Shown in pieces: positions 9,001 to 12,000 of a DNA stretch of 64,000 nt. Positions within the stretch are counted from its first letter, which is position 1; every line of letters starts with the position of its first letter. The position numbers are program-made. The stretch comes from a virus. Lineage: Duplodnaviria > Heunggongvirae > Uroviricota > Caudoviricetes. Location of the stretch: the IMG/VR virus record IMGVR_UViG_2718217859_000010; one strand, written 5' to 3'.

Positions 9001-12000
9001 CGTAGGCTATTTGCACATAGTAGATTACATATTCGTTGTGAGCGGCATTAGCGAACATAGATCTACTAACTAACATCAACAAACAAAAAACTATGTGTTA
9101 TGACAAGCAGTCTAACGACTAACACTCTAACTTGTGCAAGGTTCTGGCGAATGCCAATAGATTAAGGGATAGTCGAAGACTCCCCTAACGGGTATCCCTA
9201 TAATTATTCTTATAAAGATAAAAAAGAATTATATTATATAGTTTAATAGTTAGTTTTATTATTAGTATTATCGTTAGTCTTATTGTGGTTCAAATTGACC
9301 TACCCCCTAGCTCACAGTGACCTACCCCCTAGCTCACAGTGACCTACCGTTACATCCATTTATCACATAACATCTGTGCAATGATCTTCTAAAAGTGTTT
9401 CTTGCTACCAAAATTAAACATCTAAAACAGGCTTAAATTCAATGTAATTGATGATTAATCCCTGTGTAATTCCTACGTAAAAATTCAATGAAAAGTAGCT
9501 TAAAAGTGCAATGTTAGCTTTCTTCACTTTTACATCACTTTCGCTGCGCCTTGTGTAATGCGGCATATAGCGCATCACTGCAAAATTGTTGCTCAATAAA
9601 CGTTCTATCATTTGTCGAACAAGTTTCTTTAATGCAACAAAAAATTATTTTTTCAAAATAAACACACTATTTAATAGCTTGCTAATTTTACCAAAACGTA
9701 ACTACATGATTCTCATGCAAGACGTGTAGTGATAAAGCAGGCTAAATCACCACACTAAAAACCTTCGAATTTCGTAGTGAAAAAAGTCCTTTACACGCCT
9801 AATCAACACGATCAATAATCACTACACACAAATCAACACAGAAGGAAAATGAAAATGGCTAATATTGGATATATAAGGGTGTCGACTGTCCAACAAAACA
9901 CAGACCGTCAATTAGCTGGAGTAACTCTTGATAAAGTCTTTGAAGATAAAGCGTCAGGCAAGAATACCCAGCGCCCACAGTTTGAGGCAATGATGAACTA
10001 TGTGCGGGAAGGTGATGTTGTGCATGTTCACAGTATTGATCGCCTTTGCCGTAATACAGCCGACCTACTGGCAACGGTTGAGCAATTAACAGAGCGCGGC
10101 GTGTCTGTGCATTTCCATAAAGAAGACTTTAAGACAGGGAAGAACTCTCCCGCAGGGAATATGATGCTCACAGTGCTTGCAGCAGTGGCACAAATGGAAC
10201 GTGAAATGATGCTTGAGCGGCAACGTGAGGGGATCGCCGCAGCTAAGGCCGCTGGACGTATAGCAAAACGTGGTAATGGAAAAGCAATTGATCGAGCGGG
10301 AATTGTTGCCGCTCTCGCGAATGGTGGATCAATTCGGAGCGTAGCAAAAGATTTCAGTGTCAGCACACAGACGGTGCAACGTATCAAGAAAGAGCAGGAA
10401 GCGTAATGCCTCCTGATATTTGAGAATTGTCGCTGCGTGGACCTGACGCCGCTGATCTTCGCGTTAAACATTGATCACGTCTGCGCCGATTTCAGATAAA
10501 AAGGTAGCTATTAAGCAATACGTAACTTTTACAATTAGTGAAATTATCTAAAACACAAGTTATATAGATGAGAAAATGAAACATTATCTTTAACAAATCA
10601 AACAAAACAACACATCATCTTGTTGACACCATACAAAGTGAATAGTAAACTATTATATGTGAAAATTTGCATGTTGCGTGCAATAAAAAATAAATGATAC
10701 TTTGCTATTGTTAAATCAATAGGGGGTATCTATGCGCTTTATCTCATCCATTTTAAAAACCTGCAGAACCACAATTACTTTAGCTGTAATTGTTACCATC
10801 ATATACCTCATCTATTTTACCCCTCGAGATAAAATCGATTCACTAGCGATCATCGTTCATGCAATGGCTACATTAACTAAAAAACTTTAATAATTTCACT
10901 ATCAGGCGCATAAACACATCTTTGATCGCTGGATGTGTTATGCGCCTACTGGTGATTCAATCCTTAAGCCATTTCAACTCACTAAGGAGTTTTCTTTCTT
11001 CGTTCTCTCGCTGTTTACGCTCTAGCCAGGCTTTTCCCTCTGGCGTAGACAGGAACTTACGAGCGTGAATCTTGCGGTTATTACGTTTGATAGCTGCAAT
11101 GTTTTTCATCGTGTGCCTCTGTATTCATATGAAAATTAACAAGTTACATACTACACAGGGAGACTACGCATAAAACACAATACAAGTAAAGATACATTTT
11201 CAAGACAATAGGAGCCATAAAGCGCCTTTGATGGTTATACCAAAAAATAAGCGCCGTAGGCGTATCCACTAAAAAGGGCTTTTTCACAAAAGCTATGAAG
11301 TCTTAGCAGTTCTTCTCTTATCAGGCACCCGTTGTACTCCGGTGGACGAAACCGTGCTAGAGCTTGATTCTTTCCCGATCAAGTTAGGTTTTGAAGAGGT
11401 GGGCTTTAATCCACTATTGCACTTAAAACTCTTCCCATCATTTAGCCTGTTTATCCTCTGCAACGTCTCACGACGTGTAGCATCATTGGACACCGCGCCA
11501 GGTGTGGAACATCTTGCTAAGAGTTTTGGTAGAAGGTTTAGAGACGGTGGCACGTCTTCCAGCTTCAAAGGAACTTGTTACGAGGTTGAGCCTGGGAACT
11601 ACTCGCCCATACGTGTTACACTACCAAAGCCCATAACAACGTATAGGCGTTTGTAAGTGATAACAGAAGATACAATTTCTTAGAGAAGTTAAGCTAAGTT
11701 ATTGATTTTCTTGATGGTGCCGATAATAGGAGTCGAACCTACGACCTTCGCATTACGAATTATAAGAATCCGCTTCTAATTCAAAGTATTACCCCATCAA
11801 CACTGCGCTCACACGTCCCACCACATCAAAACATGTAAAGCCTTGCAAGCCATTGTGAGGCCTTATGTGTCTCAGTTTTGTCCCACTACGACCTGCACAG
11901 CAAATAAGAAAATAGCGGTGATATCAAACAGTACAGAAATCTTTTTTCTTTCAAATGGAGAAACTGATTAACCCGTTTAATTGTACTCCTCATGGGTAAT

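Follow-up and report, generated by a model that had tools for sequence, protein, structure and literature searches.

Two very small genes that converge on a shared hairpin, one of them encoding a hydrophobic peptide, raise the question of whether they form a toxin-antitoxin pair. Such a locus is found in a stretch of 64,000 nucleotides (nt) of Escherichia coli DNA, IMG/VR virus record IMGVR_UViG_2718217859_000010, hereafter called the window, the numbering of which is used throughout. An earlier reading of the sequence alone (the sequence-only reading) proposed here a 52-codon and a 50-codon open reading frame (ORF) joined by a long inverted repeat and forming a toxin/antitoxin-like locus at the edge of an island. 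The comparative analyses described below indicate that both ORFs are genuine genes and demonstrate that they do not form a dedicated pair. Of greatest interest is a result from just outside the proposed coordinates, a candidate new structured RNA coupled to the 50-amino-acid (aa) gene. The coordinates of all features are given in Table 1.

Both open reading frames are supported as genes by comparison with related sequences

Both proposed ORFs were present in the ORF list, on opposite strands. Since ORFs of this size are frequent here, with 19 ORFs of at least 20 aa overlapping the 1.1 kilobases (kb) around the locus, gene status was settled by comparison with related sequences. The strong ribosome-binding site claimed for the 52-codon ORF was recovered as a Shine-Dalgarno (SD) sequence, AGGGGG, located 7 nt upstream of the ATG, and the 50-codon ORF is preceded by AGAGG. 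The expectation that both genes would be missed by standard annotation held for only one of them. The window allele of the 52-aa gene is unannotated in RefSeq, the only allele of that gene for which this is the case, while the 50-aa protein is called by RefSeq/PGAP as WP_000788776.1, 'hypothetical protein'.

A search of 5.8 billion proteins identified 57 clusters of the 50-aa family with 67-100% identity, from Escherichia, Shigella, Klebsiella, Enterobacter and Raoultella. Their alignment shows a basic, invariant core (KRNNRKIHARKFLxTPEGKAWL) followed by a variable C-terminus. Because a profile search of 1.84 billion representatives returned just 43 hits, of which 39 were shorter than 100 aa and the remaining four were short multi-stretch matches in long proteins, the family appears to be narrow, restricted to the Enterobacterales, and not a fragment of a larger domain. 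Among 73 distinct alleles the median ratio of nonsynonymous to synonymous substitution rates (dN/dS) was 0.116, and codon position 3 was ~3 times more variable than positions 1 and 2. Taken together with the conserved frame, these data indicate that the 50-aa ORF is a real gene. AlphaFold2 predicted a two-helix hairpin without strands (helices 4-20 and 23-49) at a mean predicted local distance difference test (pLDDT) score of 89.9. Foldseek found no match to this model in the PDB, and a profile search of the PDB returned ribosomal protein bL34 alone, with a non-significant E value of 0.67. The 50-aa protein had no match in Pfam, NCBIfam (E up to 10), PHROG or PADLOC, and none of the 57 clusters carries a Pfam domain.

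The position of the 50-aa gene is also conserved. In 21 species-representative genomes it is located 570-700 nt downstream of tRNA-Thr(CGT) or tRNA-Leu(CAA), reading away from the tRNA, and in one metagenomic island (L032) it is located ~770 nt from tRNA-Gly(CCC); this arrangement spans at least 9 genera. Counted from the tRNA/attachment (att) end, it comes first among the protein genes in nearly all loci, with the integrase at the far end of the island; the exception is L032, in which a 68-aa gene lies between the 50-aa gene and the RNA described below, nearer to the tRNA. The 50-aa gene is thus a core gene of a family of capsid-gene-bearing islands found at tRNA-Thr, tRNA-Leu or tRNA-Gly. 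A conserved protein of 68-85 aa (MSVTYKITYEHRDG...) was observed in the tRNA-Gly islands, encoded between the tRNA-Gly end and the remainder of the island (L032 3770-3976 and L187 3290-3547).

The 52-aa gene has a different distribution. Its window allele forms a single cluster in the protein database, and a comparison of positions followed by a profile search located three more allele types. One, from E. coli, has the same length (MHLLSKH...; WP_000550450.1 in RefSeq), one of 56 aa occurs in Klebsiella/Raoultella, and one of 58 aa occurs in E. coli at a tRNA-Gly island (L187). Identity between the four allele types is 33-38%. All 35 extracted copies, representing 9 alleles, were intact, as was the 58-aa allele of L187, and a strong SD (AGGGGG, GGAGGA or AGGAGG) precedes the ATG in all 9 extracted alleles. 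The dN/dS values ranged from 0.1 to 0.43. These comparisons indicate that the 52-aa ORF is a real gene as well. It is accessory cargo, usually travelling with the adjacent serine recombinase gene.

The 52-aa product had been described as a single-helix membrane peptide with traits of type I toxins. Its hydrophobic character and an SD-hiding leader were borne out, while AlphaFold2 predicted two helices (2-29 and 32-51, pLDDT 78) instead of one, with a hydrophobic core at residues 14-29. No match was obtained for it in Pfam, NCBIfam (E up to 10), PHROG or PADLOC, and membership in a described toxin family (Hok/Gef, Ldr, TisB, Ibs, ShoB, DinQ, Zor and others) was not indicated by Pfam or NCBIfam. 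The homology search against toxin, antitoxin and defence families that the sequence-only reading had called for therefore matched neither protein. In 50,697 phage genomes neither small protein, nor the RNA together with the 50-aa gene, was found by tblastn and blastn. Two records in a plasmid collection matched, one of them a mislabelled chromosome. A literature search covering the peptides, the accessions, the RNA motif, thrW islands, satellites and structured-RNA surveys returned nothing relevant, with an earlier description elsewhere being possible.

The two genes occur independently of each other

Among 180 related loci, tblastn detected the 50-aa gene in 164 and the hydrophobic gene in 42. 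Approximately 490 complete E. coli genomes carry the 50-aa gene, ~260 of them without the hydrophobic gene. The window-type hydrophobic allele was found in 52 of the ~490 genomes. The L007-type sequence is present in 274 complete E. coli genomes, of which ~100 represent the fourth (L187) allele; this allele follows a recombinase gene and has neither the 50-aa gene nor the RNA nearby. Since each gene occurs without the other, the 52-aa and 50-aa genes are not a dedicated toxin/antitoxin-like pair.

In other genera, unrelated converging genes for proteins of 129-195 aa, several with a membrane anchor or a signal peptide, are located downstream of the 50-aa gene, and this position behaves as a variable cargo slot or hotspot. 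Examples from loci L010-L022 are L014 820-1260, L022 10223-10648 and L016 10180-10569. The homology between window-type and L007-type sequences starts at 10846, within the 52-aa ORF (its last 15 codons), and extends over the hairpin and the 50-aa gene, a pattern that marks a recombination joint between modules.

No conserved antisense promoter to the 52-aa gene was found in three alleles by consensus scans, which are a weak test. An antisense promoter match at the 5' end of the 52-aa gene (10714-10687, minus strand) was weak and was not kept in other alleles, and was rejected.

A conserved structured RNA is linked to the 50-aa gene

Islands at three different tRNA sites share a conserved stretch of 400-600 nt that separates the tRNA/att end from the 50-aa gene, and compensatory changes were seen in it. 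For the analysis of this region, 154 further loci were fetched by a conserved motif from viral and metagenome contigs and reduced to 26 representatives with less than 93% identity. RNAalifold predicted for these a structure of 99 pairs in 20 helices. The cells of the predicted pairs were paired in 90.4% of cases, as compared with 33-42% when the 3' partners were slid by 1-3 columns. Similarly, 52 of the 99 pairs were changed on both sides (18-24 when slid), 210 cells were compensatory (25-36 when slid), and the covariation score was 0.26 (~0.05 when slid). None of 500 shuffles reached the observed percentage paired, number of double-sided changes or covariation score, and 36 of 500 did so for further pair types. 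In the long-range helices alternative pairs were nearly equal in number, for example 11 AU versus 10 GC and 13 UA versus 10 CG.

G.U cells (175) exceeded A.C cells (46) when the minus strand was read, and a conserved GC-rich hairpin followed by a U-run closes the element (stem 11269-11249, U-run to ~11239), so the minus strand is the sense strand of the RNA. This intrinsic terminator is located ~130 nt before the start codon of the 50-aa gene, on the same strand. A protein-coding reading of the region was rejected: no frame was open across the representatives, and ORFs of 104 aa and 91 aa are specific to this allele.

A covariance model built from the 3' 245 positions of the RNA scored 199 bits at 11237-11524 on the minus strand of the window. 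For 30 of the 33 sources it identified exactly one copy, lying upstream of the 50-aa gene in the same orientation. The 50-aa copies at the three loci without the RNA look decayed, with a missing start codon or a change in an invariant residue. Conversely, 119 of the 140 loci found by the RNA motif alone had the 50-aa gene at a fixed spacing. The region is therefore a structured RNA of the minus strand that is linked to the 50-aa gene. It was found in 563 of 5426 complete E. coli genomes, including that of the O104:H4 outbreak strain C227-11, and in no case was it covered by an annotated feature; carriers were also found in several other Enterobacterales genera. Rfam contained no match to the RNA: a search of the whole window at gathering thresholds gave nothing there, and a search of 10400-11800 with E up to 10 gave chance-level hits (E of at least 1.5).

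A short direct repeat, TGTATCTT, flanks the RNA in many loci (in the window at ~11665-11690 and ~11185-11205, minus strand). Its copies may be arm-type binding sites of the integrase or promoter elements.

The 52-aa gene has a candidate promoter and a leader that pairs with its SD

A candidate promoter of the type TTGACR-17-TAnAyT is located 70-74 nt upstream of the ATG in all four alleles of the 52-aa gene. In three of the four alleles, and not in that of the window, an inverted repeat of the sequence ATCTAC-N17-GTAGAT lies over the -35 hexamer (L004 7764-7792, L007 ~10472-10500, L028 ~5872-5900 and L187 ~2498-2526). This repeat, which occurs once per locus against a chance expectation of 0.01 matches, looks like a putative repressor operator.

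All four alleles also have a leader hairpin in which the SD is paired, and in two of them the AUG is paired as well. The hairpins differ in sequence, and the anti-SD/SD partners covary (CUUCCU/GGAGGAAG, CCCCCU/AGGGGG, AAUCCUUCU/AGGAGGAUU and GAUACUUU/AGGGGGUAUC). The promoter and operator together with the SD-hiding leader point to a message that would be under the control of a repressor and translated only after an activating event.

The hairpin between the stop codons is not a canonical terminator

The inverted repeat between the two genes is real, and is larger than the 15-base-pair (bp) stem that had been claimed for it. It consists of a 17-bp core stem with one bulged base (10904-10921 with 10931-10947) and a 6-bp outer stem (10896-10901 with 10950-10955). 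The predicted folding energy was -32.4 kcal/mol on the plus strand (z -7.6) and -28.8 kcal/mol on the minus strand (z -6.1), and none of 200 shuffles was as stable on either strand. No U-run follows the stem on either strand (flanks CUACUGGUGAUUCAAUCC on the plus strand and GAUAGUGAAAUUAUUAAAG on the minus strand), and a terminator scan made no call; the hairpin is not a canonical terminator. It is common to window-type and L007-type E. coli alleles only. The Klebsiella/Raoultella pair lacks it, and there the stop codons are 12-30 nt apart. A repeat-element reading of the hairpin was rejected, as it is single-copy per genome.

The locus is located at the tRNA-proximal end of an island at thrW

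In other strains, the island is ~12 kb long and located between an integrase gene and tRNA-Thr (thrW, beside proA). Window positions 1 to ~11760 are 96-99.8% identical to it, and 6-431 encode the C-terminal part of the island integrase. The island ends with an att repeat that copies the 3'-terminal 45 nt of tRNA-Thr. The placement of the locus at the edge of the left island by the sequence-only reading thus agrees with our results, the small genes being at the tRNA-proximal end. The other copy of the att repeat is enclosed in the intact thrW gene of the window (62557-62632, minus strand), and in other strains an intact tRNA occupies the place of the repeat at the island end.

Table 1. Positions of the features described for the small-gene locus, in window numbering
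Feature	Position	Strand	Basis
Serine recombinase of 185 aa (DNA-invertase/resolvase type), neighbour of the 52-aa gene	9849..10406	+	PHROG 125 'DNA invertase', E 4.5e-62; RefSeq 'recombinase family protein'
Candidate sigma-70-type promoter of the 52-aa gene, TTGACA-17 nt-TAAACT	10623..10651	+	Consensus scan, 10/12 matches
Predicted leader hairpin pairing the SD (GAUACUUU... with ...AGGGGGUAUC)	10696..10730	+	RNA fold
Gene for the 52-aa hydrophobic protein (two helices predicted), accessory cargo	10732..10890	+	ATG ORF, intact alleles, SD, dN/dS
Long inverted repeat filling the 66-nt gap between the stop codons	10896..10955	.	RNA folding, both strands
Gene for the 50-aa basic protein (helical hairpin predicted), core gene of the island family	10957..11109	-	ATG ORF; RefSeq WP_000788776.1
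Conserved structured RNA of ~410 nt with an intrinsic terminator at its end	11239..11648	-	Covariation, covariance model
att repeat, copy of the 3' 45 nt of tRNA-Thr(CGT), island end	11715..11759	-	Same letters as 62557-62601

A second element of ~50.8 kb (11760-62556), inserted in tandem at thrW, parts the island from the tRNA. Its components are a lambdoid prophage, which carries ompT and tail genes, and an IS66-family element (12233-14848). The Rfam matches within this second element were IS009 (19250-19447), STnc100 (48191-48408), C4 antisense RNA (56016-56103) and isrK (56128-56204).

Among the proteins encoded by the island are a major capsid protein of the lambda-E type, a tape-measure-like protein of 613 aa and a Dit-like tail protein, together with a replication-initiator-like helix-turn-helix (HTH) protein, the integrase and the serine recombinase. 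Homologues of the capsid and tape-measure proteins are encoded 7-10 kb inward of the 50-aa gene in Raoultella, Winslowiella, Kluyvera and Citrobacter. No match to terminase or portal families was found among the 10 largest ORFs of the island that were screened. The island may be a kind of phage satellite, and the island family is satellite-like, apparently with capsid and tail parts of its own. In this family, which includes homologous islands in L002-L021, the gene directly upstream of the capsid gene may encode a decoration or scaffold protein. The literature search found no description of this island family, one published elsewhere being possible.

In the window, in L007 and in L187, the gene directly preceding the hydrophobic gene encodes a recombinase. 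Because this neighbour is invertase-like, the idea of an invertible segment was raised, and it was rejected. The sole flanking inverted repeat (9267-9291 and 10766-10790) is just 72% complementary, and all 52 genomes with the window allele are colinear.

Two further observations concern gene-poor parts of these islands. In the window, a 1.8-kb gene-poor stretch from the replication-initiator-like gene to the recombinase gene contains three tandem 22-bp repeats (TCACAGTGACCTACCCCCTAGC-like, 9290-9355), which are probably iterons of a replication origin of the island. In a sister island type, that of E. coli 2012C-4606 (L005), ~3 kb from the regulatory genes to the 50-aa gene (5056-7996) have no annotated gene.

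Proposed explanation and alternatives

We regard it as probable that the locus consists of two genuine small genes with separate histories, which meet tail to tail at a module boundary of a ~12-kb phage-satellite-like island at thrW, and that the 50-aa gene is tied to the RNA. For the 52-aa product, the 50-aa protein, the RNA and the hairpin alike, we infer the biochemical functions as follows. The 50-aa protein and the RNA may work together, either in that the protein binds the RNA or in that the RNA is a long regulated leader, the terminator of which would control read-through into the 50-aa gene. In strains in which the tRNA gene adjoining the island is intact, its promoter may drive transcription into the island. 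The 52-aa product, with a hydrophobic helix followed by an amphipathic helix, is probably a peptide acting on membranes; a repressor and the leader structure would normally keep its gene silent, so that it would be made only under particular conditions. The hairpin probably serves as a 3'-end structure common to both transcripts, which would stabilise or insulate the converging messages.

Several points weigh against this explanation. The structure of the RNA was derived from the same alignment that was used for the pair counts, and these counts are therefore inflated. The RNA and the 50-aa gene could occur together through common descent within one island family instead of being functionally linked, and no convincing promoter was found for either of them. 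The promoters reported here are consensus matches, which occur at chance frequency, and the leader hairpins stand out only modestly in folding (z -1.65 to -2.1). The helical-hairpin model of the 50-aa peptide is hardly informative on its function. Transcription driven by the tRNA promoter is inapplicable in the window, where the ~50.8-kb element lies between the island and the intact tRNA.

An alternative in line with the sequence-only reading is a type I toxin-antitoxin-like locus, in which the 52-aa product would be a membrane toxin and its messenger RNA would be held in check by antisense pairing with the converging 50-aa transcript. The pairing would take place in the common hairpin or where the 3' ends overlap, on the model of par/Fst-RNAII or TxpA-RatA. 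Such a system would account for a small, hydrophobic, two-helix peptide whose SD is hidden by covarying leader pairs in all four alleles, and for convergent transcription with a hairpin common to both 3' ends in E. coli; in Klebsiella, where the stop codons are ~30 nt apart with no terminator between them, the transcripts should overlap. However, the supposed antitoxin partner is a conserved protein-coding gene that is under purifying selection and occurs without the toxin in most loci, and the L187-type peptide allele exists without the 50-aa gene. The absence of the hairpin from the Klebsiella/Raoultella pair, the failure to find a conserved antisense promoter in three alleles (again by consensus scans, a weak test) and the lack of similarity to known toxin families also argue against it. 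The proposed pairing was consequently not upheld, and a type I system is an unlikely explanation of the locus.

It might also be considered that the 50-aa protein is a recombination directionality factor (excisionase), encoded at the island end opposite the integrase gene and brought beside attP and int by excision. The protein is small and basic, in nearly all loci no protein gene lies closer to the att/tRNA end than its own, and from the layout it would be divergent from int across attP in the excised circle. Some islands encode their excisionase far from int, as does the Yersinia high-pathogenicity island with Hef. Yet no AlpA, Xis, Vis, excisionase or HTH family in Pfam or NCBIfam matched, the predicted fold is a plain helical hairpin without a winged helix, and the core of the protein is near-invariant across three tRNA sites, while excisionases usually diverge with the integrase and the att arms. 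An excisionase would also leave the structured RNA between the gene and the att site unexplained, and we consider this role quite improbable. The explanation that one ORF or both arose by chance in AT-rich spacer DNA and give no protein draws on the frequency of ORFs of this size here, on the lack of any family annotation and on the missing RefSeq annotation of the window 52-aa allele. It fares worst of all and is very hard to sustain, since the frames are kept across strongly diverged alleles and genera, the SD and start codon are conserved, dN/dS is well below 1, and variation peaks at codon position 3.

Returning to the explanation by two genes of separate history, a wider proposal, possible but somewhat doubtful, is that the RNA and the 50-aa protein constitute an undescribed ribonucleoprotein or RNA-leader module that is core to capsid-encoding, tRNA-integrating, satellite-like islands of the Enterobacterales, and that the 52-aa peptide is a separate, conditional membrane effector. 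If this is true, the module might have a role in, for example, immunity, helper sensing, or the control of excision or packaging, and might be expressed from a host tRNA promoter. Large structured RNAs without a known function are seldom found, and new biology has come from several of them. The RNA described here, which is more than 400 nt long, supported by covariation, unannotated and tightly linked to a 50-aa gene, may represent a new class that is present in about 1 in 10 complete E. coli genomes, and in its host E. coli genetics, RNA-seq and structure probing are routine. The 52-aa gene contributes a small membrane protein for which support is good and the layout of the control elements is clear; it lends itself to direct tests of toxicity or phage exclusion. 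The locus further teaches that tiny genes arranged tail to tail with a common hairpin are insufficient for a toxin-antitoxin call.

Comparison with known systems

The hairpin resembles bidirectional intrinsic terminators in that a stable, GC-containing hairpin exactly fills the gap between converging stop codons, and differs from them in the lack of a U-tract directly after the stem on either strand. The RNA resembles GOLLD and ROOL, which are found near tRNAs in prophages, and immunity RNAs of the P4 CI/C4 type, in that it is several hundred nt long, forms many helices and is located beside a tRNA gene in a phage-related element. It is unlike them in having no Rfam match and in its Enterobacterales host range. 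It also differs in being coupled to the 50-aa gene with a terminator just upstream of that gene, and it may consequently be a cis-acting leader and not a free RNA.

The 50-aa protein, predicted to form a hairpin shaped like a helix-turn-helix with a very basic first helix, is reminiscent of Rop/Rom, of the arginine-rich motifs of phage N proteins and of bL34, its only PDB profile match and a very weak one. As with RNA binders of the Rop/Rom type, a large structured RNA is close at hand, adjoining the gene. The predicted protein is like Rop/Rom in its two-helix shape only, with no Pfam hit and no match to Rop among PDB sequences or by Foldseek.

For the 52-aa gene, two kinds of systems were compared. 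With type I toxin-antitoxin systems, such as par/Fst-RNAII of pAD1 and TxpA-RatA, and with the silent-mRNA principle of Hok/Sok and TisB, it shares a hydrophobic peptide of ~50 aa, a leader that occludes the ribosome-binding site, a converging unit with a hairpin common to both 3' ends, and a location on a mobile element. It differs from these systems in that no dedicated antisense RNA gene was found here by consensus promoter scans (a weak test), the converging unit encodes a conserved protein, either gene is carried without the other, and the 52-aa sequence is unrelated to known toxin families. Although the 52-aa protein has no homology to any PHROG or PADLOC family, its gene is like the 'morons' of prophages and satellites, such as those for superinfection-exclusion and kil-type peptides, in being located in a variable cargo region with its own candidate promoter and, in three of four alleles, an operator-like inverted repeat, and unrelated membrane or secreted proteins are encoded at the same position elsewhere. 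By analogy, the 52-aa gene would in its working be closest to the gene of a type I toxin or to a cargo peptide of prophages.

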